DNA from: Paraspadella gotoi | Lineage: Eukaryota > Animalia > Chaetognatha | DNA length: 64,000 bases | Direction of reading: 5' to 3' | Assembly (NCBI GenBank): GCA_051294375.1 | Contig: CM119270.1 | Location: forward strand, 14,792,046-14,856,045 | Shown here: one piece after another, positions 37,146 through 63,855 of the stretch | Position numbering within the stretch: the stretch's first letter is position 1 | Layout: the number at the start of each line of letters is the position of its first letter | Notes under the pieces: model-generated | Databases searched by the model: none | Seen by the model: the letters and a program-made list of their open reading frames with translations, nothing else | Told to the model about the DNA's origin: nothing | Made by a program: the position numbers and the translations under genes

Positions 37146-37275
37146 GTGCCGGCAACACGGAGGTGAAGTTCAACAAAGATGGCGACGGTTTCGGTCGCTA
37201 CAACATCTTCCAATTCCAAAAGGATCCGTTCACGCAGAAGTACGGATACGTCAGGATCGGAGAGTGGGAGAACAG
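37146..37275 (+). CDS. mGluR: mGluR-like exon: end of Venus flytrap domain
   Basis: ctcag acceptor and gtaag donor; 130 nt (phase 1 to 2); (G)[42 protein letters not shown]. Confidence 0.92.
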
Positions 37276-40200
37276 GTAAGAATGGGAGAATATGGGGAGG
37301 CGGGAGTGGGTGAACGAGAGAGAACGGTTGGGAATGGGAGAATCAGGTGAGCGGGATTGGGAGAACTAGGGAGAATGGGAGAACCGGTGAGGATGGGAGA
37401 ATCAGAGGGACGGGAGTGGGAAATGTAAGAAGAATCTGAGAATAAGCGAGAATGAAAAATTTGGGGTCGGAAGTTAGAGAACAACGAAAAGCAGCACAAC
37501 AGGTAGGAATGAGATAATTTCTGGATGGCCGTGGAAGAATGAGGGAGAATAGGAGAACATGTGGGAATGGGAAAATCGGGTAGCGGGAGATGGAGAACGG
37601 GAGAAGACCAGATAGGACAGGTGAAAATTAGAGATAGGGGCGTGAATGGGAGAATGAGGGAGAACAAGGAAGAAAGAAATAGGTGAGAAGACAGCCGTAG
37701 GAGAACGAGGAAGTGTCAGAGAAATATCATTGTGTGTGGAAGTCGGGGAGGAGAATGATTGGACGAATGACTATATGGGATTAAGTTAGGGTTTGAATTT
37801 GGGAGAAGTTAGAATATATGATTAACCGAGAAGGAAGTGAAAAATAAAATGATAATTCCCCGGGGTGAATCAAATGCCGAAAATGGGGGTAAGGGAACTC
37901 CTGTGATCGGGAGAGAGAAACATAGGTTTGAAGCATTTAAGTGGAAAGAAGAAATGGGAAAAGGTAAAAGATAGAAAAAAAATAGAATAGAAATGAGAAA
38001 TTGAGAAAGTTGAGAAGAATGACATGAGGATTTCCAGGAAATGGAGAAAGAAAATGAGGAAAACATGAAAAAGTTAAAGAGGGTGAAGAGAGAGGGTAAG
38101 TTAAGGTGGACGGACGATTGGGTCAGTTTGGCCAGTTGCTTCGACGAGTCACGTGAAAAATATATTTCCCTTTTTCTTTACTTTCCTTTTCTTATTTCGA
38201 AGAATCTTTCTTCTCTAGGGTTTTACGGTNNNNNNNNNNNNNNNNNNNNNNNNNNNNNNNNNNNNNNNNNNNNNNNNNNNNNNNNNNNNNNNNNNNNNNN
38301 NNNNNNNNNNNNNNNNNNNNNNNNNNNNNNNNNNNNNNNNNNNNNNNNNNNNNNNNNNNNNNNNNNNNNNNNNNNNNNNNNNNNNNNNNNNNNNNNNNNN
38401 NNNNNNNNNNNNNNNNNNNNNNNNNNNNNNNNNNNNNNNNNNNNNNNNNNNNNNNNNNNNNNNNNNNNNNNNNNNNNNNNNNNNNNNNNNNNNNNNNNNN
38501 NNNNNNNNNNNNNNNNNNNNNNNNNNNNNNNNNNNNNNNNNNNNNNNNNNNNNNNNNNNNNNNNNNNNNNNNNNNNNNNNNNNNNNNNNNNNNNNNNNNN
38601 NNNNNNNNNNNNNNNNNNNNNNNNNNNNNNNNNNNNNNGAGAGAGAGAGAGAGAGAGAGAGAATGAGATTGCATTCACAGTTGAAGACCATCGGTTGAAG
38701 TAAGAAAATTATTCGTTCGTCCAGGAATTTTTGTGAGAAGAAAAAAGGCACGAGTGAATAGATTAACACATGCTGAGGGTCTTAAAATATAGTGCACACT
38801 TCTCACAGATTTACTTAGAAAGACGCATTACGTCTTACTGTTATCTCACATATTCGTTTACTCGCACACAGACGCTCGCTCTCATACACAGTTACACACA
38901 AACGCACACATTACATGCGCTCACACTCTCGCAACTTTTCCGTACGATAGACCACCAGAGTCGGACCCCAGCGACGCTGCCGGANNNNNNNNNNNNNNNN
39001 NNNNNNNNNNNNNNNNNNNNNNNNNNNNNNNNNNNNNNNNNNNNNNNNNNNNNNNNNNNNNNNNNNNNNNNNNNNNNNNNNNNNNNNNNNNNNNNNNNNN
39101 NNNNNNNNNNNNNNNNNNNNNNNNNNNNNNNNNNNNNNNNNNNNNNNNNNNNNNNNNNNNNNNNNNNNNNNTTCTTCCCGAAAAACGCCACCGAAAAACA
39201 CCATCAAGTCAGCGATAAAAGTTCCGGGGAAAAGCCCGTTATTGAGATTTAAACGACCGACAACGTCGATGGTGGCTTCGGCCTCATTGTTGTCGTCGTC
39301 GTCGTTGGCGACGGAAGATGCGGCGCTGACGNNNNNNNNNNNNNNNNNNNNNNNNNCTAGGGAGCGGAGAAAAAGGAGAAAAAATAAGAAAGCATCATAA
39401 ATGAGAAAGGACGAAAACGTGAAAATAAAGAGAGAGATCAAAGAAAAACTTAGAGTAGCAAGCGGGAGAACAAACAAGAGGCAATGGAGTTCGAAGAGAT
39501 CGACTTAGAGATAGAAGAAATATTGAATGCCCTTTATAAATGATATAATCTGACGAAACAATAGGAGCCGCATAAATGTCGTTTGCTAGGATGGAAGAGA
39601 GAGGCTAAACAGCATTAGCTTTTTTACGAGCTTCCCAAACCATTGAAAACTGCGATTCTATCGACCACCTCTCTCTCGTCTCTCTCCTCTCTCTCTCTCT
39701 CTCTCTCCTCTCCTCATCTCCTCTCTCTCCTCTCTCTCTCTCTCCTCCCTCCCTCCGCGTCCCTCCCTTCCACCCCACCTCTCATCAAGTATTCTTGCCG
39801 AATCTTTGCGCACCTTGAGCTCCGGCTCATATCATGCAAGTTGCATCTGACAAACAGTTTTAACATGCGGGCCTCATTTTCCTCGCCGCTTTCCACCTCT
39901 CGACTCCCCACCCCATTTCCACGTTAGCTTCACTCCTGACACCACCACCCCTCCATCTTCCCCCCACCCCAATCCTTTTTCATGTCTTAGGCGTCTATCT
40001 CTCGCGTTTTTTTTTTTTCGTTCGAAAACTCGATTCATATCCTTTGAACGAAACCATTTTGAGGTGTGTTCCTCCATAAAAAAAAAAAAAAAAGACGGGG
40101 CGATTTCCAGTCCGCCGCGGTGATCCGATGCTGTAGAAATGCTGTCGATGCTGCGGATGTCGTGTCTATCTTTAGCGGAGGGCTTCATGCCGTTGCAATA

Positions 40201-41861
40201 TTGAGGGAGACTGACTAAAATTGGCAGCATCGACGAGGATAGAGATTCAGCAAGATGAGAGATTCAGCCTTTAATTATGTAAACGTCTCTTACGTATGAA
40301 TAAATAACCATGAAAGTTATGTCTTTTTATCAGATGCTTCTTTGTTTGTTTTTGGGTAAAATGTGGCGTTTCTTCTACTTTTTTTTATTTTTTTTGTTGT
40401 CTTCATTCCTTCCTTCCGCTTTTCATTTCAATTTTGAACATCCTTCTTTTTTTTTCTTTTTTTTTGTTACATTTTATCATCTATTTTATTCACCTCTTTT
40501 CTCTCTTTTACTTCTTTTTCTTTTTCTTCCTTTTTTTCTTTTTTTCTTCTCTTTTATTCACCTCTTTTCTCTCTCTCTCTAACTTCTTTTTCTTTTTCTT
40601 CCTTTTTTTTCCCTTCAATTCACCCCCCCCTTTTCCCCTTCCTTCCTTTCCTCGCCCAGTTTAAGTCTCGACACACTCTCCATGAGTTGGTGGCATCATC
40701 AAAGAGAAGAGGCCCTCAACGTCACCGAAGAAGAAGGCAACTTCACGACTCAAAGGTCGGTTGGTCGGTTGGTCCACCTCACTTATAATGTAAAGTTCGC
40801 CAAACATTAGCTTTGCCTGGTTAAAGCTACCATATTATTATTTTGTATTTTGAATTAAAATGTGATTTTTTTAACCGAAAACCGAGGTTTTTTTTTTTTT
40901 AATTTTCGTCACAAAATGTCGTTTAGTTTAAAATCAAATAAAAACTGAACTGATTAGTCCTCAGATTTTCTTCTCTTTGTGATGCAGCACTGAAGAATTC
41001 TCATAACTAATGACAGTAATAAAGATGGCGCAATTTAATCTCGCTTGATTTCAATTCCACAACTTTTTTTTCTTCTCACGGCGCCATTTCTCTTTTTGTA
41101 ATTCTTCTCTTTTTTCATTTCCTCCTCGTTTCTCATCTTTTCCTTCTTTCTACCCCCCTCCCCCCCCCCGAACAGCCTCCCCGGTCCCCCCCGCTCCGTC
41201 TGCTCAGAGCCTTGTCCCGAGGGACACGTCAGGACCATGAAGACGGAACAGTGTTGCTGGATTTGCACCAAGTGCGGCGACTTTGCCATCATCGACGGTG
41301 AGAGAGAAAGGGTAGTCGCAGGATTGTGCCCACGTATTATTGGGACCATAAAATTGCGCCCCAAGGATTGCACCCACGTAGCATTGCGCCCACATAGAAT
41401 TGCACCCATAGTATTCCGCCCACGTAAGATTGCGTCCACATGGCATTCCGACCTGTAGGATTCCGCCCACGTAGAATTGCGCCCACCTCAGACTCAAAAT
41501 AATTTCAAAATGAATAATGCGAGAAATTATGCGTTTCTTATTTTTTTAGTGGACCTTCAGTCGTGCATCGATTGTCCTCAACACCAAGAACCGAACCTCA
41601 ACAAATCCCTTTGTATCGACATTCCAGTTCAGGTGACCCTCTGGTTGGTCGGTCAGTCGGTCGCTCAGTCGGTAGATCGGTCGGTAGCTTAGACGGTAGG
41701 TCGGGAAGTCGGTCGGTCGATAATATGAGAGACGGTTCGCCTAAGCTTGTACGTGGCCATATTTGTTTTGAAAATTAAGAATCTGCATTTAAAATTTCAT
41801 CAGGTCTCGCCAAGCTTTTGACGTAAATTCTGATTTATGATTTCAACGCTCGCACTCTCTT

Positions 41862-41938
<77 letters not shown>

Positions 41939-42027
41939 GTACATGAATTACAGCGCCCCTGGGCCGTCTTCCCTCTCGTCTTCGCCACGCTGGGAATTTT
42001 AACCGCCATTTTCATTATCGGTAAGGA

Positions 42028-42099
<72 letters not shown>

Positions 42100-42456
42100 T
42101 CTCCATCCTTCTCCCTCTCCCGTGATTAAAATCTTTGGTGAACTGATTAAACCGCCTCCGGATTTTCCTCACGGGAAAAGTAGTGAACGAATGAAAAGGA
42201 AAATTCTGGTTTCAGTCATTCGATTTCAAAATAGAAAAAATATATTTAATTTCTTCGCTTTTGCCGTCGATTTTTCGTACAGAGTCCTTGATGAAAGAAA
42301 TTGTGATGAATTTTATCCGATAAAATAAACTTTGGAATCAACTTTTATTTTCTCCCATATCAAGGAGACAATTTGGTCTTTAGGAACTCGTTTTTAATTT
42401 TTTTATGATTTTAAAAGCAACCATCATCATAATCATCATCATCGTCATCATCATCG

Positions 42457-42500
<44 letters not shown>

Positions 42501-43827
42501 GTCATCAACATCATCACGACTCCGATCAACAACCACAACAATAACAACAAAAGAAACCTAAGCGAACTCATGAGGGCAAAAAAAAAAACCGGTGCGGGTC
42601 TTTTCCAGACTCGGGGGGTAAGTTTTCCAGTGGTGAATTTCGAGTGGTAAGTTTTAACTGATAAAAATGAGAAGCAGAGGGAGAGAAACATGACCCGGTA
42701 GGTGGGGCTTGAGGGTGAGGGGCTGAGGGGGGGAGCAGTGTTGAGAGAAAGGTGGCCTAACTCGAGTGCGGAGTTAATTAAGTTTCGGAAAAGACGATTT
42801 ATTTGGATGCGGCTTTCGAGTTTACAGGTTTTTCCCTTTCGTCAACCGAGTTATTGGCTTTCTTTTTTTTACCCTTTAATCCTTCGTTCCTTTTTTTTTT
42901 TCTTCTTTTTTCTTTTAATCTAAATCTTTCTTAGTTTTCGATCTTTTTTTGATTTTTTTTAGGCTTCCAAAATTTTGTCGGTAAATCACTTAGAAATTTG
43001 AATTATGATAGATTATTATAAATGATTATAAAAAAAGATAGATAATAATTAAAAAATAAAAAATAAAATAACAAAAAAGAATAAAAAAAAGAAAAAGAAA
43101 GAATAAAAAAGAAAAATAGGGAGTAAAATCATTGGTCAAAATTGATTATGAAAGCTTGGCTTTTTTTGCTACAAAAGGAAGACTACACCAAGGGGTAGAC
43201 ATTTTTTCATGCTTCGGGGTGACCCCTTGGGAAGGAAGTTTTTTTCACCCCAAGGGGCCGCCCCTAATGCTAAAAAAAATTCCTCCTTGGTGGCACACCT
43301 AGGTATACAGTTTTTGCCCACCCCCAGAGGCTATCCCTAGGTATGACCCCCCCCGGTGTCGCCCCTAGACACTCACCAGGGGGAAGGGTTTTATTCTGAC
43401 GGTATACTTGAGATAAAAACCAAACAAAAAATGAAAAAGAAACTTTTTATTACAAAAGCATTTACCAGTAATTCAGAGGAGAAAATTCCCAATCTGGACT
43501 CGGGATTTTGTAATAATGACGACCGCATGACTCATTGAGCACCGATTCCACCAAAGACCCACCCAAAAACCATACAATTATCTCCACCTTTCATCATCCA
43601 ACCTCGACTTCTTCCATCGAGTCTTTTCTAGACCCATTTTCTGTCAAATCTGTAGTTTCCACTATTATCGTAGCGTCCGTCACCACCGTCGTAACTTCCA
43701 CCGCCACCAGCGTAACGTCCACCGCCACCACCATGACGTCCGCCACCGCCGTAATCTCCATCACCATAACCGCCGACCGCCGGACATTCTTGGTTCCGCG
43801 TAATTAACTATTTGAAATAAGGAAATA

Positions 43828-43921
<94 letters not shown>

Positions 43922-45521
43922 TATGATGATAATAATAATAATAATAAACTTCAATAGTGTGCCAAATAATATTCAAATTTATCCAGCATTACAAGATTTA
44001 CAAATTGCACTCATTTAAACATAAGTAAGACAGACCTATAGAGAGACAAACAGACAAACAGAAAGAGGGACAAAGACACAGACAGAAAAGTTCCTAAAAA
44101 CCCACCTTTGATTGGCCGCCCATCGAGATATGTACCATCGAGGGCGTCGACGGCCTTTTGGGCTGTTTGCTGATTGGCCAAAGTGACGAAGGCGAATCCT
44201 TTGCTACGCCCCGTGTCTCGATCCATAATGATGTTAACGTCAGAAACGTGACCCTTGCCGACTTCCCTTTCAAAGCGGGAACGAAGGCCTTCTTCCGTAG
44301 TTGAATAGTCCAGATTACCTGACCGGGGGGTAGGGAGTTGAGAAAGGAAATGGCTGGTAAATATAAGATAGTTTATTTACTAAAGGGAAAATTTGCGTCG
44401 CGTTGACGTTTATAAATATGTTGTTGTGGTAATAGATGTACAAGAATCAACGGTATGGCGCCAGAGATAGCTCTGGCGAAAGTAGTTGGGTTCACGCCCT
44501 GCTGATTCACACAAGAAAGCGGGATGGGGCGTCTAACTTACGAGTAGAGACGGGAATAATGTATGGTCCAAAGTCTTGAAACTTGTGCGCTACCGACGGC
44601 AAAATGCTTGGGGCATCGTCTTCCAAAAATTTACTTACCCACGTAGAGGCTGACTCTTGTAGCTTGAACGGACGCCGTCAGGAAGATTGATCCCGCGAGA
44701 AGAAACGAGACAAGGAAATGCATGGTTTTATATTTATTGCATTAAAAAATTATAAAACTAAGAATAATATTAAAAAGAACAACAGAAAATGATTCAAAAG
44801 ACAACGAGGGAAGAAAAATGTAACGACGGTACCAAAGTGGTTCCGCCAGTTGGAGTTCTTTGCTTTCATATTGATGCAGGGATTTAATAGAAAACCGGAT
44901 TGGTTTTATTTTTCGTAAAAGATTCGTCCTTGACAATCTTTTAAAGTTAATTTTTTTAGTTTTGGAGCTAGTTATTTTTAGCTTATTTTATTTTATTTTA
45001 TTTTATAACGTATATTTCTTCTCGTTCTACATAATCATATTTATTCTTTATAAATTATTACCTTTAGTACTTGAAATTGGCTTGAGGTTGGATAGACTCG
45101 TTGAAGGTCGGGATTAACGAGATTTTTCAAGAGATCAAGTTTTTTCCTGTTTTAAATCTAAAAACTAAACAATAATTAAGCGGTAATTAGCTAATCAGAT
45201 GATAAATCACGGTAATTATTTCAATTTGTGATCCTAACTGATCAATTGATCATAACAGATCGTACCATACCAAACCAGTGGCTGAACCAATACATGTAAA
45301 TCGCTTGCAAGACATTAAACTGAACTGTTACTATGGTACAAACAAATAATTTTTTTAACTATTATTATTTTTTCAATTCGCATCATTTTTTAAACTCGAC
45401 CGACGGACCGACAAAGTGGATTATAGTGTCTGCTGATAAGCAGATCCGACTGAAAAAGAAATTGAAACCGTAAAACTGCAATAAACAGATTGAATTTCTC
45501 AGAAATGCTCAAGTTTTATTT

Positions 45522-45555
<34 letters not shown>

Positions 45556-46837
45556 CTTCATTTAATACTTTTATTTCCCCAATTCACCCTCACGACCTCT
45601 TTTCCATCTCATCACCTCCTAATTATCTCCTGATTAATCTCTTTCCTTTTTCTCTTCCCCGCTCTTTATCATCTTACTTAATAACTTCCTTTATCATCTC
45701 ATTCCTATCTCCTCCAATTTCCTTTCCTCTTTTTTTCTCCCTCATTTCCTCTCCCATCTTTTTTTTTCCCGCCGAGAGGCGATTCTCCTTTCCCCGAACC
45801 GATCGATCACGGAGAGTGCGTTCAAGATGGCGCCTTGAGATGGCGCCATTACCGAAACGCCATCCTATGGTCGCGTTCGAAATGGGCCAAGGCCCTAGCG
45901 AACGCTCGCCGTTTAAATGGGGCCCTTCGCATTGCGGGGCAATATCGAGTGCAATGGGAGAGAAACTGTCTCGGGATTGTCCTATAAACGATGAGCTTGA
46001 CAAAAAACGTAAGGTTATGTAGTAGTAATTTAATTGTTACATAAAAATAATAGGGATCAATTTACGTCACCACTAAAATAACCCAAGAAATAAATTGGCA
46101 ATATTATTGATCTTATGAAAGCCAAAACTAACGCCGCATTACTCTAATGTTTTGGACATGGCGCCACAATATCGAGTTCCCGGAATCGCGAGGTCGAGAT
46201 TTGCTTATCGAAAAACTATTCGAGGATTAGGAGAGTCATAAAAAAATCCCAACGCCCCTTTAGGCGAGTTTCTCAACCAAATTACTTTGTCAAATTTCTT
46301 TTTGTTATTTATTTTTTTTACTGCCGATAAGAAAATAGATTCTCCAGTTAGGAACGAATCCGTAAAAAAAAAACATCGCAATCGAAAGATGGCGGGTAAA
46401 ATCTCTCAGTCGAGTCTTATTTCGTTTTTTGGGTTTTTTATTTGTTGTTTTTTTTGTTGTTATTTTTCTTCTTCTCTTTTTTAATACTTCAAAAAGATTT
46501 ATAAGAGCGAGAGAGAGAATAGCGAGAGATGGAGTCTCGGCTCTCCCCGTATTGGTCTGCGAAAGCAGTCCTCCGCTATCCACCCTGGGCGGGCCGACGG
46601 GGGGGGGGGGCCGCAGTCATACCATCTGTCACCGTCTCAACTTTTCTCATCAAACTCCGGTGGTTGTGATAACATCGGTCTTTTCCCCATCACCCACATG
46701 GGATCCCGATAGCGTCTCTCTTATCTTTATCACCCTCCCGAGGTTGTGATAGCATCTGCTGCAATAAAAAAAAGAGGATCCGGAATTCCCTCATCGATTC
46801 AACTGACCACCCAAAGGAACAGATTGACGAGGTTGAG

Positions 46838-46876
<39 letters not shown>

Positions 46877-46883
46877 TCTCTCT

Positions 46884-46931
<48 letters not shown>

Positions 46932-48153
46932 TCTTTAATCCTTTTATTTCCCCAATTCACCCTCACGACCTCTTTTTCCATCTCATCACCTCCTGAATTA
47001 TCTCCTGATTAATCTCTTTCCTTTTTCTCTTTCCCCGCTCTTTATCACTTACTTAATAACTTCCTTTATCATCTCATTCCTATCTCCTCCAATTTCTTTC
47101 CTCTTTTTTTTCTCCCTCATTTCTCTCCCATCTTTTTTTTTCCCGCCGCGAGAGCGATTCTCCTTTCCCCGAAACGATCGATCACGGAGAGTGCTGTTCA
47201 AGATGGCGCCTTGAGATGGGCCCCATTACCGAAACGCCATCTATGGTCGCGTTCGAAATGGGCCAAGGCCCTAGCGAACGCTCGCCGTTTTAAATGGGGC
47301 CCTTCGCATTGCGGGGCATAATACGAGTGCAATGGGAGAGAAACTGTTCTCGGGGATTGTCCATAAACGATGAGCTTGACAAAAAAACGTAAGGTTATGT
47401 AGTAGTAATTTAATTTTACATAAAAATAATAGGGGATCAATTTACGTCACCACTAAAATAACCCAAGAAGAAATAAATTGGGCAATATTTGATCTTAATG
47501 AAAGACAAAACTAACGCGCATTACTCTAATGTTTTGGACATGGCACGCCACCAATATCGAGTTCCCGGAATCGCGAGGTCGAGATTTGCTTATCGAAAAC
47601 TATTCGAGGATTAGGAGAGTCATAAACAAAATCCCAACGCCCCTTTAGCGAGTTTCTCAAACCAAATTACTTTGTGTTCAAATTTCTTTTTTTATATTTA
47701 TTTTTTACTGCCGATAAGAAAATAGATTCTCCAGTTAGGACGACGATCGTAAAAAAAAAAAAAAATCGCAATCGAAGATGGCGGCGTAAATCTCTCAGTT
47801 CGAGTCTATTTCGTTTTTTGGGTTTTTATTTGTTTGTTTTTTTGTTGTATTTTCTTCTTCTTCTTTTTTAATACTTCCAAAAAGATTTATAAGAGCGAGA
47901 GAGAGAATTAGCGAGAGATGGAGTCTCGGCTCTCCCCGATTTGGTCTGCGAAGCGTCCTCCGCTATCCCTTGGGCGGGCCCGGGGGGGGGTGGGGGGCGC
48001 AGTCCTACATACCAATCTGTCACGCGTCTCAACTTTTCATCAAACTCCGGTGGTTGTAAACATCGGACTCTTCCCCAAAAACAATCGAGCCCACAATGGA
48101 ACCCGATCCCCGATATCTAGCCCCCGTCNNNNNNNNNNNNNNNNNNNNNNNNN

Positions 48154-48187
<34 letters not shown>

Positions 48188-50417
48188 TTCATACAACTTT
48201 TGTCGACTGTAAAGCGCTGGTTGTCGCAAATGTTGATGAGATCCTTATCGCTTCCTTATTTGCATCTTTTAACATGAGAATACAGCGTCTCCGAAATGGG
48301 TTTCGCTTTCGCTATTGCGTCGAAGAAATTGTAACAAAATCTAGCTAATAAATATTACAGAATGTCGCTCTTTACTATTCATCAATAAAGAAAGCTTTGT
48401 GGCAGCAAGACTTAAAAGCTGCCTCACTGCTGTCCGTCCTCAGCCTCGTCCCAATAGCTGAGCAGGCGTCCCGGGTTCAATCCCTGGGTATCCCGGTTCT
48501 GGCTTAAATGTGACGGTGCCGGTATAAACATGCCAGTGACAGGAGGCGGTCACTGAGGGTCCGCAGCCCCTACGCCAGTTAGTGAGATACCGCGCCCCGG
48601 GTATCACAGGCTATCCTCCCGTTGCCATAGATTTTTTTTTTCTTTCGCTATACGATTATGAATTACGAATGTTCCAGTAACCGTTAACTAGAGGCGCCAC
48701 AAGGCAATCAAGCCGTTCATTTGTTTCCCGCCGTCAAAAGGATTTTATTATTAAGGCAAAGAAGAGACGTTCGCCTCGTGAATAAATTGTTTAAATTAAA
48801 ACAAAATCAAAACGATTAACGTCGACGAAGCGAACGGTGCCGTCGTCGTAAATCTAATCATGTCATGATGAAATTGGTAAATACACTTTGTTTACGAATC
48901 GGCTCTTATGTTATAATTTATCGGAGACGAACCAGTGGTTGTTGACTTGCTGTGGATTAAACGCGAAAACGTTATAATCGAGAAAAACAGAAGGCTAATT
49001 CCCTTTTCTTCTCTAATTTTCTGTTTCATAATCTTTTCTAAACCGTCTTGACGACGAGAAAAAAAATGAAAGGAAGGCGCAATATTAATGAAACACGCAA
49101 ATGAAAAAAAAAATCTATTTTCTCCTTTCACCAAAAAAAAATTCTTTTTTTTTCTTTTCCTTTTTTTTTCGATAAAAGGAAAGAGGACGAAACAAGAGGG
49201 ACGAAAAAGGGAGAGAAAAAGAAAGAAAAAGGACTATATTTTACGCTCAAAAATTTGTTCTTTCTTTTTCCTTTCTTTTTTTCTCCATTTTTTTCGTTCC
49301 TTTCCTTCCTATTTTCTCTTAGATTGCCTTATCGGAATCGGATGTTTGCTTCCAGCGGAGGAAAATCACAGTTTCTTTTCTTTTTAGTCTCATTTTTCGC
49401 ATTTTTCTCTCTCTTGTTTTGTTTGCTTTTATTTTAGTACATATTTGGCGTTGACACGTCGGGTTCGGTCGATAAAATGTGGGTTTGAAGTTATAGGGGT
49501 CATCAGCGGAGTCCGGAGCGTCGCTGTTTTTAGTTACGATCATCTTCTCACGGCATTTGTATCAGTACATAAGAATTCCAATAGGTTCAAATATTACCAT
49601 AGATATAAACATATAAACAATTTTGAAGATTATCCTTAACTTAAACTATTACTCTCAAAAAAACTAAAATTCCATCGCGAACCCAAAACGTTCAAAAAAC
49701 CCCGCGTCTTTGTTGTGAGCGAAGAATAATCGAGTGATTGCCCCTCTGGTGAGAGCGAATTTTGTGAATGACCTTCGCGTGAAAGATCGTTTCCGTCTCT
49801 GGTTTCGGCCGAACTTCACTTCACGAGAAAACTGCGGACGTCAAGAACGTGAAAGGCAGACCGGATTTGATAAATGGTCGCTTTTGGTTCCGAGTCGGCC
49901 TGGCGTCGGGATGGCGTCGGGTTCTTGTCGGTTTGGCTTCAGGTTTGGGTCGGCTTGACGTAAGCAACTCGACGGGTCAGCGTCGAGTTGGAGTCGGCCT
50001 TACTTTGCTTAGTCGTCGGCCCGGTTTTATGTCCAATTGATATCGGAATGGCTAAAATTTTGGGACACGGTTCCAAGTGAAAATGAAGTCAAAGCGATNN
50101 NNNNNNNNNNNNNNNNNNNNNNNCGATTTTTGTTGGGACGAGAGTGGCCGCACACGAGCAAATTTACTTTCAAACCAATTCGAGCGGTTTTAAAAACTCA
50201 TATGAAGTAAAGTGTTGGTCGCAATGGCTGAAACCAGGGCTCATTCAGTTCCATTCTATTCTGTTAGATATTTTTAATATGACCAAAAAAAAGTTAAACA
50301 TGTTCGAAGGGAAATAAAATTTAATTCGATTTGGCGGAAAGCTGGAGAAACCCGGTTTATTTATTTTCCTAAATAGTCTCTACTTAAACGTTTAGTGGCC
50401 CGATTTCCCCCTCCTCT

Positions 50418-50461
<44 letters not shown>

Positions 50462-53400
50462 CTCTCTTCCTCTCTCTCTCTCTCTCTCTCATCCTCTCTT
50501 TGTTTTGTCCGGAAATTTTCTTTTTTTCGTGGAGAAAAATATTGTTTGACTTAAACTTTAAAGGCATTTTTAAAAATTAAGTCATTTTTAAGAGAATATC
50601 CTGCGGGCAGAGGGCAGGTTCTCGCTGACGTCGTCCGCATAGTGGGTGAGATGATTTGTTAGGCTGCGCCAGGAATTCTTTTTTTCCTTTTTCTTTTCCC
50701 CTTTTTTTCTCTTCGAACTAATTTGTTTTTTTATCAATTTCCTCTCCCCTTTATCACTTCTCTCTGCCTCGGGTAGTCAGAAGTTGTCCCGGACGCTCCA
50801 ATCCGCTCCAAAAAACCGTGAACGAACGGCGATGATCTTGGTAAGGAAAAGGGGCAAGAGAGTGGGGGGAAAGGAAAAGGGCGTCACACTCTTGAGATGA
50901 AAACCTTTGGCTTGGGGAAGGAAAGGCAGCGTCCCTGGGAGTGAGGAGATGCGCAGGAATGTTTGCGAGATAGGGACTACTTATCCCTGTGGTTGAAAGA
51001 GACATCCGACTTGGCGCAAAAGGATGGGAAGAAATAGGCAGCCAAAGAAATGGAAATGAGAAAAATGAGAGGAAAATATGAGGACGAAGGAAAGAAAAAT
51101 GAAAAGGAAGAAAGGTTGAAGAACCCAGAGGAAGAAAAGAAGCAAGAAGAAATAAGTGAAGAGAAGATAGAGTGAAAGGGAAGAAAGGAGAATAAGAGAA
51201 AAGGAAAAGAAGAACAGTAGAGAAAGGAAAGAGGAAAAAAAAAGAAAGGAAAAAGAAGGAAGAACACTGGTCAGGAAAGACGAAGTAAAAGAGAGAAAAC
51301 GAAAGAGGAAAAATAGAAAAAAAAAGAAGGAAAAGGAAAGGAACGAGAATGGAAAAAAGGGAAAACAGAAAAAGTCAAGGAAAGAAAAGTGAAAAAGAGA
51401 AAGGAAAGAGAAAAATAGGAAGCGAAAAAATAAACAAAAAGGAAAGAAAGAGAAGGGAAAAAAGAAAGGAAAAAAAATAAAGAAATAAAGAAGAAATTAA
51501 AAAAAAAGGAAAGAAAAAAATGAAGGAAAAAGAAGGAAAAAGAGAAAAAGGAAAGAAAAGAAATAAAAAGAGGAAGGAAGAGATGGAAAGATTCACGAGA
51601 AAAAGGAGGCGCAAAGGAAATCGATCGACCGAAGTCGCGCAGAATGATCAGTCAAAAGGCTGACGTTGGACCGAAGGCCTGACGCTGAACAAGCCCCCTG
51701 AACGATGCACCACAATCCCTAATGGGCGCACGCGGCTGAACAGTTAAGAGCTAACTCTGTCGCATGTCAGTTGTCGGACGCAAGCGGAAACTGCTTTTGT
51801 TTTTGGCCTTCTTTAAGTTTTATTCTGCATATGTGAGCCATATAATAATATAATAATATAATAATATAATAAATATCATGAAGTTAAATAAATACAGGTG
51901 AGTGAAACATTTATAGGGTTTTTGTCTGCCATCGTCTTCATTCTGTCATCAGTCATGAATACTTTGAATTACAGAAGCTTTGCAAAAACCAGACTGTAAT
52001 ATCAAAGGGGATAAACGAAATATTTGTTTCTGTCGCGGCATTTCGCGTACATTCGCAGTGTCAGCCGTGTCAAGCCGTGCTACCTGTCACGTTTTGTCAA
52101 TCCTCATCACCTGCACTGAGACCAAATGGCGCACAAGAATGATTTTGACTCTTGGGCGAGGTGTAGGAAGCGTTTGATGCTTTTGGTCGCTTGATTAAAG
52201 ATGCGAGAGATTCGGTTCGTTTTGACGGAAGAGAGCACTGTGCCGGATTAAAGAGAAAAAACACTGTGCAATTAAACTCGTTAAATTGGTGGAGAATTGT
52301 ATGACGATTAATCGGCACGAAAACGAGTGCACGTAGGTACTTTGTTGCAAACATTAAATATTATACTATAGTAAAAAAAATATCTCTATTGCTTAGGAGA
52401 TCGTGGATACAATGCTTTTGTATTCACTGCTGCATGGTACACCAATTAAATTATCCATCCATTTAATTAATAGCTATCTGTCCCTGAACTTTGGACAGGC
52501 TTTGTGGTTTAAGGCCTCCATCACACTTGCCAAGATAAAACATAACAGGTTTCTCAAGCTTCTATTCAAGCCTCTCCACGATTGTTTATTCACTCCAGTG
52601 AAACCTGGCTTCCTATCAATGAAAGTGGTATAATATTTCCAGAATGTGCAATTGTATGTAAAGACCATTATATTCTACGAATTAAATTTTCACTCTGAAA
52701 TTTCTTCCTTTGTTCGAATACATAGGCCAGATAGTCGACAGCAGTATACATATATAATGTTTATTTAAAACAAGTCAAATGAGTAAGTGATGGTAAGGTT
52801 TAGGTGAATATACACCTGTAGCAGACGGAAAAGACACGGCCGGTCCGATGGAAGGGACACGGCGCAACGAGAAATCGAAGGTTTGGCAAATCGAAAAGTC
52901 ATGTGGTAGCACAGCAAAATTCCACCTGGTTGCAAGAGAACGATCGATGGGTGAAAGAAAGGGTGATGGGGTGGAAAGGAAGATTGCATGGGGTGGAAGG
53001 AAAGCTGCGACGGGTTGGACGTGGAAGGATGTAATTGAATTAAGGGAAGATTGGACAAAAGGAAAAACAAATTTACATTTCTAAAATGAAATTTCAAGAT
53101 GTCATCGACATTTTCGATGTTTTATTCCGGCTTCTCTTTTGTTTCGTGACGGAAATATCGACAAAACTTCGTAAACTTAATTTCGCTAACTTAAAATTTC
53201 GTATTCCTAAGAGAAATCTGTCGAGTTTACTATTTTTTAATTTAAACGCTCTGGATTCCTCAACCAAGCTTAATTAATTCATCACTTCTCAAATATTACC
53301 TTTTTCATTTCTTTCTTTCCATTTTTTCTTATTTTTTAAACTAATTTTTTTGCACGAACGCTAATCACGTTGGTTGTTTTTTAGGCGAATAAACTAGATG

Positions 53401-56400
53401 GCGTTTCAGTGTTTGTGACGTCGTTTGTCCATTGTTTTTTCTGTGAGTTAAGTATCTTGGCTGTTGTTGTTATGAAATTCGCTGTTGTCGTTGAAAAATT
53501 TCGAAAATCAATTACTTGTNNNNNNNNNNNNNNNNNNNNNNNNNNNNNNNNNNNNNNNNNNNNNNNNNNNNNNNNNNNNNNNNNNNNNNNNNNNNNNNNN
53601 NNNNNNNNNNNNNNNNNNNNNNNNNNNNNNNNNNNNNNNNNNNNNNNNNNNNNNNNNNNNNNNNNNNNNNNNNNNNNNNNNNNNNNNNNNNNNNNNNNNN
53701 NNNNNNNNNNNNNNNNNNNNNNNNNNNNNNNNNNNNNNNNNNNNNNNNNNNNNNNNNNNNNNNNNNNNNNNNNNNNNNNNNNNNNNNNNNNNNNNNNNNN
53801 NNNNNNNNNNNNNNNNNNNNNNNNNTTTTTTTCCCCAGCGATAAAATAGAATGTTGAGACAAAAACTTTATCCTGGATCGAAATTCGGGAGGAAATTTGA
53901 ATGAAACTCAATTGAAAACTAATATTAATCTTAAACATTTTATTAATCTTAATTGTAAAAGTTTAAAGTAATGGGTAAAAAATGTGCTCGGGATTAATTT
54001 CACCAATAGTAAAAAAAGAAGATGAAAGTACGAGGAACTAGAAGATTTTCTCTCTCTCTACATAGATTATATATAAAAAATGTGCTCGGGATTAATTTCA
54101 CCAATAGTAAAAAAAGAAGATGAAAGTACGAGGAACTAGAAGATTTTCTCTCTCTCTACGTAAATTATATATAAAAAATGTGCTCGGGATTAATTTCACC
54201 AATAGTAAAAAAGGAGATGAAAGTACGAGGAAATAGAAGATTTTCTCTTACTCTACGTAGATTATATTTTTATNNNNNNNNNNNNNNNNNNNNNNNNNNN
54301 NNNNNNNNNNNNNNNNNNNNNNNNNNNNNNNNNNNNNNNNNNNNNNNNNNNNNNNNNNNNNNNNNNNNNNNNNNNNNNNNNNNNNNNNNNNNNNNNNNNN
54401 NNNNNNNNNNNNNNNNNNNNNNNNNNNNNNNNNNNNNNNNNNNNNNNNNNNNNNNNNNNNNNNNNNNNNNNNNNNNNNNNNNNNNNNGTGTGTTTGATGT
54501 TAGATCGAAGAAAATAGATGTAATTAGTAAAAACGATTCTTTATTTAGCGTAAGAAACTTGAGCTGCAATATCTGCTGGAAGATCTTGAACGGAGAAATC
54601 TTCTTCCTCCTCTTCATTCGTCTTCTTCAGCAAAAATTGGATTTTGACTCAAAATTTTTTTTTCTCGTTGTGATGCTTTTTAAATTGGTGTGGTGAGAAC
54701 TCTTTGGAGTAGGGTTCAAGATACTNNNNNNNNNNNNNNNNNNNNNNNNNNNNNNNNNNNNNNNNNNNNNNNNNNNNNNNNNNNNNNNNNNNNNNNNNNN
54801 NNNNNNNNNNNNNNNNNNNNNNNNNNNNNNNNNNNNNNNNNNNNNNNNNNNNNNNNNNNNNNNNNNNNNNNNNNNNNNNNNNNNNNNNNNNNNNNNNNNN
54901 NNNNNNNNNNNNNNNNNNNNCAAAAATTAGTTTAAAAAAAAGAGAAAATATGAAGGAAGAAATGAAAAGGTTTGAGAAGTGAAATAATAAATTAAGTTTG
55001 GTTGAGGAATCCAGAGCGTTAAATTAAAAATAGTAAACTCGACGATTTCTCTTTAGAATACGAAATTTAAGTTACGAAATTAATTTACGAAGTTTTGTCG
55101 ATATTTCCGTCACGAAACAAAAGAGCAGCCGAATAAAACATCGGAAATTTGTTCGATGTCATCGTTGAAATTTCCTTTTTAGAAATGTTAATTGTTTTTT
55201 TTTCGTTCGTCCAATCTTCCCTTAATTCAAATTACATCCTCTCCACGTCCAACCCCGTCGCACTTTCCTTCCACCCCATCAATCTTACCTTCCACCCCAT
55301 CACTCTTTCTTTCCACCCCATCATCGTCTCCTTGCACACCACCAGGTGGAATTTTGCTGTGCTACCACATGACTTTCGTGATTTTGGCCAAACCTTCGAT
55401 GTTCTCGTGCGCCGTCCTTCGCATCGGACTCGGCCTATGTCTTTCCGTCTGCTACAGGTTATTTTCACCTAAACCTTACCTCACTTACCTCATTTGACAT
55501 TGTTTAAAATAAAACATTATATATGTATATGTGTCACTATCTACATATGTATTCGAATCAAACAAGAAATTCAAGAGTGAAAATTTTAATTCGTAGAAAA
55601 ATAGTGGTCTTTTCATACAATTGAAACATTCTTTGAAAGATTATACCACTTCATTGATAGGGAAGCCAGGTTCACTGGGAGTGAATAAACAAGTCTGTGA
55701 GAGAGGCTTGATTAAAAGCTTGCAGAAACCTGTTATGTTATTATCTTGCAAGTGAGATGGAGGCCTTAAACCACCAAAGCCTGTCCAAAGTCAGGGACAA
55801 GATAGCTTATTAATTAAATGGATGGATAATTTTTATATTGGTTGTACCAATTTCATTTTATTGTGCAGCTGCTGCAGCTGCAGCAGATGAATACAAAAGC
55901 ATTGTATCCACGATCTCCTAAGCAATAAGAAGATATTTTTTTACTATCTAGTATAATATTTAATGTGCAACAAGTACCTACGTGCACTTCGTTTTCGTGC
56001 CGATTAATCGTCAACATTTCTCCACCTAATTTAACGAGTTTTAATCTGGCACAGAGTTTTTTCTCTTTAAATCCGGCACAGTGCTCTCTTCGTCAAAACG
56101 AACCGAATCTCTCGCATCTTTAATCAAGCGACCAAAAGCATCAAACGACCTTCCTACACCTCGCCCAAGAGTCAAATCATTTTGTGCGCCATTTTGGTCT
56201 CAGTGCAGGTGAGAGGATGTGACAAAACGTGACAGGTAGCACGGCTTGACACGGCCTGACACTGCGAGATGTAACGCGAAATGGCGCGACAGGAAACGAA
56301 ATCATTTGTTATCACCTTTGATATTACAGTCTTGGTTTTTCAAAGCTTCGTAATTCAAAGGATATTCATGACTGATGACAGATGACAGACGATGGAAGAA

Positions 56401-57646
56401 AAAAAACCCTAATAAATGTTTCACTCATTTATTTTTTCTTAAAAAACTATCTTCATGATATTATTATATGGCTCAATATGCAAATAAAACTTAAAAGAAG
56501 ACAAAAACAAAAGCAGTTTCCGCTGCGTCCGACAACTGACATTGCGAACAGAGTTAACTCTTTAAACTGTCAGCCCGTCGTGCGCCATTAGGGATTGTGG
56601 TCACTCGTCAGGCGGGCCTGTTCAGCCGTCAGGCCTTCGTCCAACGTCAGCCTTTTAGACTGATTTTCATTCTGCGCGACTTCGGTCGATCGATTTCCTT
56701 TGCGCCTCCTTTTTCTCGTAATTCTCCTCCATCTCTTTCCTTTCCTCTTTTTTTTCTTTTCTTTCCTTTTTTCTCTTTTTTCTTCTTTTTCCTTCATTTT
56801 TTTATTTCCTTTCTTCATTTTTTTCTTTCCTTTTTTTTAATTTCCTTTCTTCATTTCTTTATTTTTTCCTTTCTTTTTTCCCTTCTCTTTTCTTTACTTT
56901 TTGTTTATTTTTTCCTTTCCTATTTTTCCTCTTTCCTTTTCTCTTTTTCACTTCTCTTTCCTTGACTTTTTTCTGTTTTCCTTTTTTCCATTTCTCTTTC
57001 CTTTCCTTTTTTTCCTTCTTTTTTCTTTCCTATTTTTCCTCTTTCGTTTTCTCTCTTTTACTTCTCTTTCCTTTACCATTTTCTTCCTTCTTTTTTCTTT
57101 CTTTTTTTTCTCCTCTTTCCTTTTCTCTACTGTTCTTCTTTTTCCTTTTCTCTTTTCTCCTTTCCTTTTTCCCTTTCACTCTTATTTCCTCTCACTTATT
57201 TCTTCTTGCTTCTTTTCTCCTCTGGGTTATTTCTTCACCTTTTCTTCCTTTTCATTTTCTTCTTCGTCCTCAATTTTTCCTCTCATCTTTTTCTCATTTT
57301 CCATTTCTTTGGCTCCTATTTCTTCCCATCCCTTTTCGCCAAGTCGGATGTCTCTTTAACCACAGGGATAATAGTTCCCTCTCGCAACATCCTCGCATCT
57401 CCTCACTCCCAGGAGACAGCTGCCTTTTCCTCCCCAAAGCCCAAAAGGGTCATCTCAAGAGTGACGCCCCTTTCCTCCCCCCCCCGCCTCTCTTCCCCTT
57501 TTCCCTACCAAAGATCATCGCCGTCGTCACGTGGATCGGAATGGAGCTTCCGGGCACAACTCTTACCTACCCGAGCAGAGACGAAGTGAGTAAAGGAGAG
57601 GAAAACTGATAGAAAAACAAATAGTTCGAAGAAAAAAAGGGGGAAA

Positions 57647-57710
<64 letters not shown>

Positions 57711-58371
57711 AAATTAACAAGGAAAAAATAACGGTTGGCTGTATCAATGAAAAAAGAAAGTAAGAAAGATAGACAGAAAGAAATAAAGATAACAATACAG
57801 AAAGAAAGATCGCACATTTGTTATTCTGCAGGTTTTACTGCGGTGTCGCGTCAACGACGTCTCTCTCATCATGTCGCTATTTTATAACATGGTAATGATT
57901 ATTACGGATATAATTAATGATATAGGCAGTGATTTTNNNNNNNNNNTTTTTCTATGTCTATCTATTGCCTCCCCAAATTTCTTTTCTTTCGCGCCCAACT
58001 ATCATCTTTTATTCTCCCCACTTCTACTTTTTTTTCTTTCTATTTTCTTACTCACTCTTTTCTAAATCGGTCTCTCGGCTCCTATCGTTCGACCCTCACT
58101 TACTTTCTCTCTCTCTCACTCTTGCCCCCTTCTCCTTTACTTTGTTCCCCTGATCCTTTCCTCGCCTCTCTTTCCTCTCGTTCCTCAACGTCTTCCCGAT
58201 TTCCCCCCCCCCCAGGTGCTGATCGTTCTCTGCACCGTCTACGCATTCAAGACGCGCAAAATCCCGGAGAATTTCAACGAGGCCAAGCACATCGGGTTCG
58301 CAATGTATTCCACCTGCATCGTCTGGCTCGCCTTCGTCCCCATCTTCTTCGGGACCAACAACGACTACATG
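37146..58371 (+). CDS. mGluR: Class C GPCR, metabotropic glutamate receptor-like gene (partial; 8 exons visible, TM2-TM3 and TM7/C-tail exons not found)
   Basis: Exons with AG/GT boundaries and matching phases give [18 protein letters not shown]...IGEW (end of Venus flytrap), SVCSEPC...CCWICTKC...CIDC...C (nine-cysteine domain), [15 protein letters not shown] (TM1) and [39 protein letters not shown] (mGluR ICL3/TM6 signature). Confidence 0.95.
40660..40755 (+). CDS. mGluR: mGluR-like exon: VFT-CRD linker with insertion
   Basis: Long pyrimidine tract plus cccag acceptor, gtcggt donor; 96 nt, phase 2-2, matching both neighbours; (S)[31 protein letters not shown]. Confidence 0.75.
41176..41297 (+). 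CDS. mGluR: mGluR-like exon: cysteine-rich domain part 1
   Basis: aacag acceptor, gtgag donor; [40 protein letters not shown]. Confidence 0.93.
41318..41488. repeat. Intronic minisatellite of about 17 bp (gtagaattgcgcccac-like), about 10 degenerate copies
   Basis: attgcgccca / attgcaccca / attccgccca recur at a regular pitch between mGluR exons. Confidence 0.75.
41550..41632 (+). CDS. mGluR: mGluR-like exon: cysteine-rich domain part 2
   Basis: tttttag acceptor, gtgac donor; (V)[27 protein letters not shown] completes the 9 cysteines. Confidence 0.9.
41940..42020 (+). CDS. mGluR: mGluR-like exon: TM1 (5' boundary uncertain)
   Basis: [21 protein letters not shown] then gtaag donor. The start is either tacag at 41953 (RPWA...) or about 41940 (YMNYSAPWA, which needs a 1-nt indel correction). 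Confidence 0.85.
42422..42516. repeat. (CAT)n microsatellite
   Basis: Direct reading; source of the poly-I and poly-M pseudo-ORFs. Confidence 0.95.
43628..43807 (-). CDS. RRM gene exon 3: beta4 plus Gly/Tyr/Arg-rich tail (apparent 1-nt frameshift)
   Basis: aaatag acceptor; (V)[10 protein letters not shown]. As read it stops at 43761; the shifted frame gives a Gly-rich tail to TAG at 43630-43628. Confidence 0.8.
   Translation of the reverse strand, partial: LITRNQECPAVGGYGDGDYGGGGRHGGGGGRYAGGGGSYDGGDGRYDNSGNYRFDRKWV
43628..44723 (-). CDS. Single-RRM glycine-rich RNA-binding protein (Rbp/CIRBP/GRP-like architecture) with N-terminal signal-peptide-like leader; 3 exons, about 158 aa after one indel correction
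   Basis: Exons 44723-44639, 44318-44106 and 43807-43628 are joined by two phase-1 GT-AG introns. The ATG lies in an aaaaccATG context. RNP2 is LYVGNL and RNP1 is KGFAFVTL. The tail [48 protein letters not shown] appears after removing 1 nt near 43775. Confidence 0.88.
43824..43948. repeat. (TAA)n microsatellite in RRM gene intron 2
   Basis: Near-perfect taa run just upstream of the exon 3 acceptor. Confidence 0.95.
44106..44318 (-). CDS. RRM gene exon 2: RRM core
   Basis: 213 nt open: (G)[70 protein letters not shown]. Confidence 0.93.
44639..44723 (-). CDS. RRM gene exon 1: hydrophobic leader plus start of RNP2
   Basis: [28 protein letters not shown] then G|gtaagt consensus donor. Splicing to exon 2 completes the RNP2 motif LYVGNL. 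Confidence 0.85.
45530..48120 (+). repeat. Tandem duplication of a unit of about 1.2-1.4 kb (about 45530-46720 and 46920-48120)
   Basis: Shared anchors caattcaccctcacgacctc, caagatggcgccttgagatgg and catcaaactccggtggttg. Confidence 0.9.
48393..48640 (+). mobile_element. Possible tRNA-derived SINE-like element
   Basis: GC-rich island of about 250 bp with a B-box-like GGTTCAATCCC near 48474-48484, ending in a T-run. The A-box is poor and no second copy occurs in the window. Confidence 0.3.
53978..54273. repeat. Tandem repeat, unit about 98 bp, 3 copies running into a gap
   Basis: aaatgtgctcgggattaatttcaccaatagtaaaaaa recurs at about 53980, 54078 and 54177. Confidence 0.9.
55600..55856 (+). 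repeat. Dispersed repeat family (other members about 8200-8385, 10250-10440, 23425-23610, 32210-32400, and inverted about 52435-52670)
   Basis: Core ggagtgaataaac...gatggaggccttaaaccaccaaagcctgtccaaagtcaggg...ttgtaccaatttcat occurs in unrelated flanking contexts and differs by substitutions. Confidence 0.8.
57514..57585 (+). CDS. mGluR: mGluR-like exon: TM4 end / ECL2
   Basis: aag acceptor after a pyrimidine tract, gtgagt donor; 72 nt; [24 protein letters not shown]. Confidence 0.85.
57646..57712. repeat. (GAAA)n microsatellite in an mGluR intron
   Basis: Perfect tetranucleotide run. Confidence 0.95.
57832..57891 (+). CDS. mGluR: mGluR-like exon: ECL2 Cys / TM5 start
   Basis: ctgcag acceptor, gtaat donor; 60 nt; [20 protein letters not shown]. 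Confidence 0.88.
58216..58371 (+). CDS. mGluR: mGluR-like exon: TM5-ICL3-TM6
   Basis: cccag acceptor, gtgag donor; 156 nt; [52 protein letters not shown]. Confidence 0.97.
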
Positions 58372-59115
58372 GTGAGGGAGGTGCTTGGTGCTTGGTGTGC
58401 TAGGTTGAAGAAGGTGATGATTGCTGGAGTGAACGTGTGCTTGCGCAAAGAGTAGAGTGAAATTTAATGCTTGGGAAAAACATACATTGGAGAAAAAAGT
58501 TTTGAAAAAAAAAATTAAATTTCAAAATTTTTTTGTTGATAAACGTAATTTGTTTAGTCCGTAATTCCTTTATTGCTAGTGTGGCATATACTGTGGCATG
58601 TACTAACAATAATTCTTGTTATTTATTCATTTTAATTCTTGGGAAAAATCTAAATTTGCTTAGTTAATAATAAGAACCCAATGATCAAAATTTTTCAAAG
58701 TTCTTCAAAAACTGCTCTTTCGTCATTCACCAAGGATCCGGTCAAAATTTATTCTTGGCTCGGTGGTGAAACTTACCTTTTTCATAATATTAACGTTCAC
58801 CTCGTTCTCTTTATAAATTATCATTCCTTGCCTCCGTATCTCGCTTCCTTTCTCGTTATTCCTATTTTCCTTTCTTTTCTTTTTCCTTTCTTCCTTTTCC
58901 TTTCTATCCGCTGACTTGATTTTTGGTCTCTTTTTCCAATTTTTCTCTCTCTTCCCGCTATACTCGTACCGGCCTTAGCCAATGGTTCAATAAGCGCATA
59001 TCCTCCTCTTCAAATTTCTTTTTTTTTTTTTTATTCCCTTTCCGAAATTACATTTCGCCAGAAACCTTCGCCGGGATTTCGCCAAGACTCAGGGGGCGGG
59101 GGGGCGGCGAGAGAG

Positions 59116-62100: not shown

Positions 62101-62409
62101 TGGAATTCTCTTGCAGCGGTAGGTGTGCCTTAATAATTTCGAGCCTACTGCTTGTATATATACTCTGATTGTCAGGTCGGAATATGACGGAGTTTACGGG
62201 AATTTTGCAGGGTGGTGCTTATATAATTCGAGCCTCTGTGGGATAGTCATATACTTGATTGGCAGGGCGCAATGAGGAGTTTAGGGAATTTTTGCAGCGG
62301 TGCCGTGCTTATAATTCGAGCCTCTGTGTATATAACCTTATTGGCAGGGCGAAAATGACAGGAGTTAGGGAATTTTGCGCAGGGTGGTGCTTATAATTCG
62401 AGCCTCTGG
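59116..62409. repeat. Tandem array, unit about 77 bp, roughly 40 copies
   Basis: Consensus gcagggtggtgcttataattcgagcctctgtgtatatatacttgattggcagggcgaatgaggagttagggaatttt repeated head-to-tail with scattered indels. Confidence 0.95.
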
Positions 62410-62689
62410 TGGGAGACCGACGTTTAAAAAACTGAGGGAAGGCGTTCAAGTACAGGGAAAACAGCTTTAGACGAGACCCGATCGTAAACCTCTTGAAATA
62501 CGCTGAGAAACTATTGAGCAGTGTTCATCTCATTGGATCTCGCAAGGAGTTGATTTTGAACTGAAGNNNNNNNNNNNNNNNNNNNNNNNNNTTACTGGAG
62601 GTTGATGAGGATGGGATACTGCGCCTACGGGGCACGCAGGGAGTGTCTCAAGTAGGCCGTCGAATGGGGGAAATAAATGTATTAGAGAG

Positions 62690-63855
62690 ATAGAGAGAGA
62701 GAGAGAGAGAGAAGAGAATGAGAGAGAGAGAGAGAAGAGAGAGAGAGATAGAGAGGAGAAAATAAACTTGCAGCATGTTTCTGAGGAAATCAATCTGTTT
62801 ATTTGCAGTTTTTACGGTTCAAATTTCTTTTCATCGGATCTGCTTATCAGCAGAACCACTATAATCCACTTGTCGGTCCGTCGGTTCGAGTTTTAAAAAT
62901 GATGCGAATGAAAAATAATAATATTAAAAAATTATTTTGTTTGTACCATAGTACCAGTTCAGGTTTAATGTCTTGCAAAGCGATTAATGTATTGGTTCCA
63001 GCCACTGGTTTGGTATTTGTACGATCTGTTTAGGAGTCAATTGATCCAGTTTAGTGGGATCACAAATTGAAATTAAATTTACCGTGATTTATCATCTGAT
63101 TTAAGCTAATACCCGCTTAAGTTATTGTTAAGTTTTTAGATTTACAACAGGAAAAAAACTTGATCTCTTGATTTAAATCTCGTTAATCCCGACCTTCAAC
63201 GAGGGTCTATGCCAACCTCAAGCCATATTTTCAAGTACTAAGGTATATTAAAATTATAATATGTATAAATAGGATTATGTTTTTAAGAAATATATTATAT
63301 TTAAATACCTGTTTTTTGAAAAGTAAAATCCTATTTTAATATTATAAGTTATTTTAAAAAAGAAAGTCCAATTATATGTTTGAATAAATAATATAGATTA
63401 AAATACTAAATCCTTCATAAAAAATATTTAAATATTTAAGATAAGGAAAAATGAAAAAATATAGTGAAACAAAGTAATTTTTGCAAATTTGTCATACGTT
63501 ATAAAATAAAATAAAATTAAAATTAAAGCTTAATAAAAACCTTAGCTCCAAACTAAAAAAATTAACTTAAAAGATTTGTTCCAAGGGACGAATTCTTTTA
63601 CGAAAAAATAAAAAACCAATCGGTTTTTCTAATACAAACATTCCCTGCCACTCAATATTGAAATGAACAAAGAAACTCACCAAACTGGCGAACCACTTTG
63701 GTAGACCCTGGGGTCGTTTTTCTTCTTCTTTTTCCTTCCCACTCCCACGTTTTTGGGATTGACAGACTTTTGTCCGATTTTATAGAAGAGATAATTTATC
63801 ATCGTTGTGTCGCGTTTTTTAATATTATCTTTAGTTTATAAATTTTTTAATGCCA
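62690..63855 (+). repeat. Inverted copy of about 44740-45560 (region upstream of the RRM gene)
   Basis: 62803-62910 is the reverse complement of about 45380-45482. The copy diverges at aattttttaatgc, about 15 nt before the position of the RRM ATG. Confidence 0.85.

Follow-up and report, generated by a model that had tools for sequence, protein, structure and literature searches.

A gene that joins a signal-peptide-like leader directly to a single RRM is real and is spliced. It lies on the minus strand of the window, that is, the whole 64,000-nucleotide stretch of DNA analysed here. The reading that we favour, with moderate confidence, is that it belongs to a small multi-copy family of likely secreted single-RRM nucleic-acid-binding proteins, and that the tail of this copy is truncated. 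The first-pass annotation of the same DNA, which had described a secreted glycine-rich RNA-binding protein, was borne out in part.

Structure of the RRM gene

As shown in Table 1, the gene consists of three exons. Direct reading of exon 1 confirmed the annotated 21-residue leader, which runs straight into TRVSLYV. The splice of intron 1 was also confirmed and completes RNP2 in phase. RNP1 was found intact as described, and a KDEL-type C-terminus is indeed absent, the protein ending in RRLW.

Table 1. Features of the RRM gene and its surroundings (positions in the window)
Feature	Position	Strand	Remarks
RRM gene	44723-43761	minus	three exons; antisense within an intron of the metabotropic glutamate receptor gene
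Coding exon 1	44639..44723	minus	leader and first RRM strand; A at -3 of ATG; in-frame stop 44744-44742
Predicted signal peptide	44661..44723	minus	21 codons; called by a crude rule
Intron 1	44319..44638	minus	320 nt, GT-AG, phase 1; splits RNP2; repeated element near 44439-44572
Coding exon 2	44106..44318	minus	RRM core; RNP1 at 44202-44179; 3 residues more than bacterial Rbp between helix 1 and strand 2
Intron 2	43808..44105	minus	298 nt, GT-AG; (ATT)n run; spliced in X9 record 26, a window-like copy
Exon 3, coding part	43761..43807	minus	last RRM strand, 8-residue tail, stop 43763-43761
Former Gly/Tyr/Arg/Asp-rich tail	43628..43774	minus	48 codons, 21 Gly, 21-nt repeat units; out of frame, 3' of the stop
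Remaining 3' UTR (inferred)	43390..43627	minus	two AATAAA signals, at 43451 and 43395
Host gene, metabotropic glutamate receptor	37150..58370	plus	Pfam NCD3G and 7tm_3; PDB mGlu3, E 3.6e-23; motif scan
Inverted copy of the RRM-gene upstream region	62717..63855	plus	79-86% identical; breaks off about 17 nt before the ATG position

The ATG at 44723 is preceded by an in-frame stop six codons upstream, and the next methionine is residue 60, within the RRM. This ATG is therefore the only start that gives a whole RRM. Two further elements were noted upstream of it on the minus strand. A two-codon upstream ORF begins at 44742, and an AG behind a long pyrimidine tract at 44758, 35 nt upstream of the ATG, might act as acceptor for trans-splicing or for a first exon without coding sequence.

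Transcript evidence and diverged copies

Contigs from four sequencing runs were compared with the window, and paralogues were recognised solely as contig differences. X1, X2 and X5 are DNA runs. X9 is probably an RNA run, a guess supported by its exact GT-AG skips: both introns were skipped at their GT-AG ends in X9 contigs, and in none of the three DNA runs.

One X9 contig (record 31) skips exactly the 320-nt intron 1, with CT..AC ends. It derives from another copy, about 90% identical to the window (11 differences in 109 nt), and the same version is present in the DNA of X2 and X5. The contig runs gap-free from 44743 through the whole leader region into exon 2, with no indel. Because a spliced contig spans all of it, the leader region of the diverged copy is exonic and is not a polypyrimidine tract. 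The listing gives four of the 11 differences. Two of these are silent and two change residues 5-6, and none of the four alters residues 7-19; the other seven are unlisted and lie near the contig ends, so the ATG of that copy is not visible.

Since the junction-spanning contig comes from the diverged copy, it establishes intron-1 splicing for the family and not specifically for this locus. The annotated junction 44639/44318 was accordingly seen in probable RNA of the diverged copy and not in a window-identical copy. X9 contigs identical to the window over intron 1 (record 28) are unspliced. No window-like X9 contig covers exon 1 and none lies upstream of 44743, a coverage hole that carries no evidential weight. 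Intron 2 was spliced at its canonical acceptor, with exon 3 starting from 43807 and 0 gaps.

At least three versions of exon 2 are present in X9. In a selection of 12 exon-2 differences that were translated, six were silent, including the sole two within RNP1 (F72 and L75). In X1, X2 and X5 the depth over exon 2 was several-fold greater than over the tail, depth not being equal to copy number. Within the 64-kb window itself, no second coding copy of the RRM gene was found.

The RRM domain

Exon 2 matched Pfam RRM_1 (PF00076) with 63 bits against a cut-off of 20.7. The fold model had a pLDDT of 81.8 and gave Foldseek matches to solved RRMs, and identity to solved eukaryotic RRMs was 23-43%. The protein carries a single N-terminal RRM in which RNP1 and RNP2 are intact, aromatics included. 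RNP2 starts at residue 26, and the RNP2-RNP1 spacing is 42. The domain is 39% identical both to human CIRBP and to tobacco GR-RBP1.

The leader and predicted secretion

The leader contains no K, R, D or E and has a 13-residue hydrophobic core, and its hydropathy averages 2.47 over residues 3-15. V-Q-A occupies positions -3 to -1, and the predicted cleavage site lies two residues ahead of RRM strand 1; alternative cuts are possible after residues 17 or 18. The hydrophobic core and the V-Q-A site just before the first RRM strand, both claimed in the first-pass annotation, are thus present. A cut after Ala21 would leave a predicted mature protein of 93 residues, basic (pI 9.15) and of 10.4 kDa. 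Neither Cys nor a sequon occurs in the predicted protein, and it has no second hydrophobic stretch, further membrane anchor or retention signal.

Signal-peptide calls were made with a crude rule of our own, which includes false positives and which controls pass at 2-5%. The rule was passed by 8 of the 399 open ATG frames in the window, the leader included. Base-shuffled leaders passed it in 613 of 20,000 cases (3.1%), or 4.8% of the 12,664 shuffles that were open. A pass at a chance rate of 2-5% is suggestive and not decisive. By this rule the leader and protein show the features of classical secretion, namely a hydrophobic core, a -3/-1 site and no further anchor or retention signal.

The layout of leader plus RRM, together with a second transcribed copy that keeps the leader region, supports an RRM protein of the secretory pathway. 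The proposal of a secreted or luminal RNA-binding protein has therefore gained from the architecture, the intron-1 splice and the leader-keeping second copy, while export itself is judged likely by the crude rule only.

We regard as unlikely the alternative in which T/C-rich DNA happens to be translated into a hydrophobic extension of an ordinary cytosolic or nuclear single-RRM protein of the CIRBP/GRP/Rbp type. A chance extension would have to be kept as exon over its whole length, without an indel, in a spliced contig of a copy about 10% diverged. It would also have to coincide with the lack of a methionine at the usual position ahead of RNP2, and with a -3/-1 site placed just before the first RRM strand. 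Such an origin would nevertheless suit the composition of the leader DNA, which has 41 pyrimidines in 60 nt and the look of a 3' splice site, AG occurring four times within 44663-44650. It would also suit the share of open shuffles that pass the rule, and the fact that all single-RRM relatives found begin just before RNP2.

The glycine-rich tail

A glycine-rich tail reaching to 43628 had been annotated as part of the protein. This part of the annotation did not hold. With the acceptor used in RNA (43807), translation stops in exon 3 and the product is a 114-residue protein that ends eight residues beyond the RRM; the tail lies in another frame, and the glycine-rich, phase-separating part of the proposal fails at this locus. 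Near 43775 the Gly/Tyr frame falls one base out of register. Contigs of X1, X2, X5 and X9 cover the break, and since none has an indel there (four of four runs, from three studies), the frame break is natural and an assembly error is ruled out as its source. A weak AAG acceptor at 43788 that would restore the tail (152 aa) was rejected because the RNA contig uses 43807.

Read in the Gly frame, five of eight tail variants are silent and the remaining three change to Gly or Tyr. Judging from this pattern, the tail was evidently coding in the past. A version in X5 that is 22 nt shorter would restore a 151-aa frame (the letters between are not known), and manual reading of a loose end of X9 at 43753 gave additional Gly-Arg-Tyr repeats without a change of frame. 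An in-frame glycine-rich C-terminal region, absent from the window copy, is likely in other copies, whose Gly/Tyr tails appear to be longer or in frame.

The frame break also bears on whether the window locus is a decaying duplicate that yields little or no useful protein, with the family itself possibly functional. In favour of decay, the tail lost through the one-base shift still varies like coding sequence in the Gly frame, the shorter X5 version restores the long frame, and many segmental duplicates are spread over the window, one of them a truncated copy of the region upstream of the gene. Decay of this kind would, however, have left the leader, both splice sites, RNP1 and RNP2 intact. 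The stop codon falls in the last exon, a window-like X9 contig has intron 2 spliced, and the short tail recurs in all four runs from three studies. We consider a decaying duplicate quite unlikely.

Relatives and possible origin

Homologue searches (4 of 42 and 5 of 94 candidates) gave no close relative. The best 150 of 16,522 representatives were all multi-RRM proteins at most 55% identical to the query, and as representatives of 50% clusters they could hide a relative. In a metagenome scan (4 of 64 parts) and a genome scan (6 of 64 parts), the best identities were 55% and 54%. These homologue, metagenome and genome searches revealed no combination of leader and single RRM outside this organism. 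Conservation of the leader is for this reason documented by one near copy, a transcribed paralogue that keeps the leader region without an indel.

The highest pairwise identity was to P0005 (63% over 81 columns), whose Atlas neighbours are all bacterial. In the Atlas ranking for the RRM, a plant RRM cluster came first (0.91) and a myxobacterial cluster second. The best NCBIfam model was NF058537 Rbp_regulator, with 68.1 bits against a cut-off of 100; the query was exon 2 alone, with both domain ends missing. In the bacterial comparison set (140 parsed of 160 loci), no signal-like leader was found in any of the 140 parsed loci. RNP spacing was 39 in all 140, and a methionine stood 2-7 residues ahead of RNP2 in 127. 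The window gene, with its methionine 25 residues ahead of RNP2 and a spacing of 42, lacks this leaderless, spacing-39 layout of Rbp.

Among 158 proteins, 12 passed the leader rule, all of them multi-RRM proteins of 300-580 aa, with P0137 and P0095 among the false positives. The leaders of most of the 12 look plastid-type, or so we presume. Eight proteins (P0034, P0047, P0053, P0063, P0078, P0126, P0131 and P0145) form a three-RRM family with a 3-residue insertion after RRM helix 1, equal in length to that of the window gene, and several members have organelle-type leaders.

A tree was built from 91 rows and 79 columns, comprising the query, 5 single-RRM hits, 28 random bacterial-genome loci and 57 domains from the 158 proteins; its rows include no named animal or fungal single-RRM GRP. 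Grouping of the query with the bacterial core (p-AU 0.65) and with the insertion family (p-AU 0.68) were both named post hoc, and neither was rejected. A horizontal origin of the RRM gene is possible on this evidence.

Comparison with known RNA-binding proteins

Like class IVa GRPs and CIRBP/RBM3, the window gene has one N-terminal RRM with RNP2 and RNP1, and a Gly/Tyr/Arg-rich tail would be shared through the other copies. It differs from them in its classical-type leader, its 3-residue loop insertion and the lack of an in-frame tail. In PMC5852109 no signal peptide is given for plant class IV GRPs, and PMC3881573 agrees. Bacterial stand-alone RRM proteins (NF058537) resemble it by top pairwise identity and by best NCBIfam model; unlike bacterial Rbp, the window gene has two introns, a leader and an RNP spacing of 42 instead of 39.

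A signal peptide is found with an RRM in Plasmodium vivax apiRBP and in algal proteins. Targeting to an organelle, whether by a mitochondrial signal or by the signal-plus-transit type of complex plastids, is a role that we consider very improbable for this leader. PMC5794462 reports a signal peptide plus a single RRM for the Plasmodium apicoplast, several multi-RRM hits have such leaders (some with an insertion of equal length) and a clade with the insertion-sharing hits was not rejected (p-AU 0.68), but residues 1-21 contain no Arg or Lys, the host is an animal with an intron-rich glutamate receptor gene, and there is no room for the transit peptide by which apiRBP and the algal proteins reach the plastid: the window RRM starts right after the cleavage site, its RNP2 beginning at residue 26, whereas in the 12 leader-bearing hits measured RNP2 begins at residues 44-188.

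RRM proteins are regarded as intracellular. The one extracellular case that has been studied well, CIRP, is leaderless and released through exosomes or lysosomes (as described in PMC8687456). The secreted animal RNA binders considered here rely on other domains. Honeybee MRJP-3 forms RNA-protecting granules (PMC6509358). Trichinella TsPUF, which carries a canonical signal peptide, binds secreted miRNA; it works through PAN and PUF-like regions, and the term RRM is absent from its paper (PMC10660789). Extracellular RNA binding, as proposed here for the window gene, would make MRJP-3 and TsPUF functional analogues only. The terms 'RRM' and 'signal peptide' are absent from a review of extracellular RNA in insects (PMC8001424). 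No animal signal-peptide RRM protein is named in the literature found, though supplementary secretome tables may contain cases that went unremarked.

Proposed function

For the favoured reading of a likely secreted single-RRM family, we propose the following course. Translation would start at the ATG at 44723, and the leader would be cut after Ala21. ER import, leader cleavage and default export are standard rules of the secretory pathway. Import and cleavage would yield the 93-residue basic protein, for which export by default is proposed because Cys, sequon, second hydrophobic stretch and retention signal are all lacking. Once exported, the single RRM would likely bind single-stranded RNA outside the cytosol.

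By analogy, copies with a Gly/Tyr/Arg tail could engage RNA multivalently, coating or clumping it in the manner of MRJP-3, whose fold is different. To our knowledge MRJP-3 has no RRM. The tail-truncated window copy might then represent a monovalent version. On the same analogy, the protein would most likely serve to capture or protect extracellular RNA, irrespective of its sequence, in a body fluid or a secretion. The frameshift in the window copy is a caveat to this reading, as it fits decay.

More tentatively, the gene may belong to an expanding animal family of classically secreted RRM proteins that bind and condense extracellular RNA, possibly derived from a horizontally acquired microbial Rbp-type gene, in which tail-bearing and tail-less versions would tune valency. 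We hold this wider scenario to be doubtful at present.

If the favoured reading is true, a signal peptide fused to a canonical RRM would constitute a dedicated extracellular RNA binder of the commonest RNA-binding fold. Such a small and readily expressed protein would offer a handle on the protection, scavenging or sensing of extracellular RNA in animals.

Genomic context

The RRM gene lies antisense between receptor exons at about 42020 and 55345 of the host gene (Table 1). Receptor exon motifs were located at 37193, 41252, about 41940-42020, 55348, 56095 and 58276. The exon expected between membrane helices 1 and 2 of the receptor was missed by the motif scan and may sit in an N gap. A search made with one receptor exon, meant to place the host more closely among animals, returned no match. 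Part of the receptor locus is duplicated in inverted orientation, with 50676-53349 matching 54922-57667 at 85% identity; minus-strand copies of two receptor exons lie in this duplicate at 52923 and 52223 and look damaged.

No clear terminal inverted repeats were found flanking the RRM gene. Short elements that are highly repeated by read-contig depth lie upstream of it (45109-45300), in intron 1 (44439-44572) and downstream (43300-43433). Just upstream of the gene, 45523-46689 and 46898-48077 form a tandem duplicate of about 1.2 kb that is 92% identical. The inverted copy of the upstream region at 62717-63855 runs on beyond its break into unrelated sequence. Several long direct and inverted segmental duplicates of up to 5.4 kb, with 81-92% identity, lie within positions 1-36000 and are either real repeats or uncollapsed haplotypes. 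A degenerate tandem repeat array of about 3.3 kb is present at 59112-62411.
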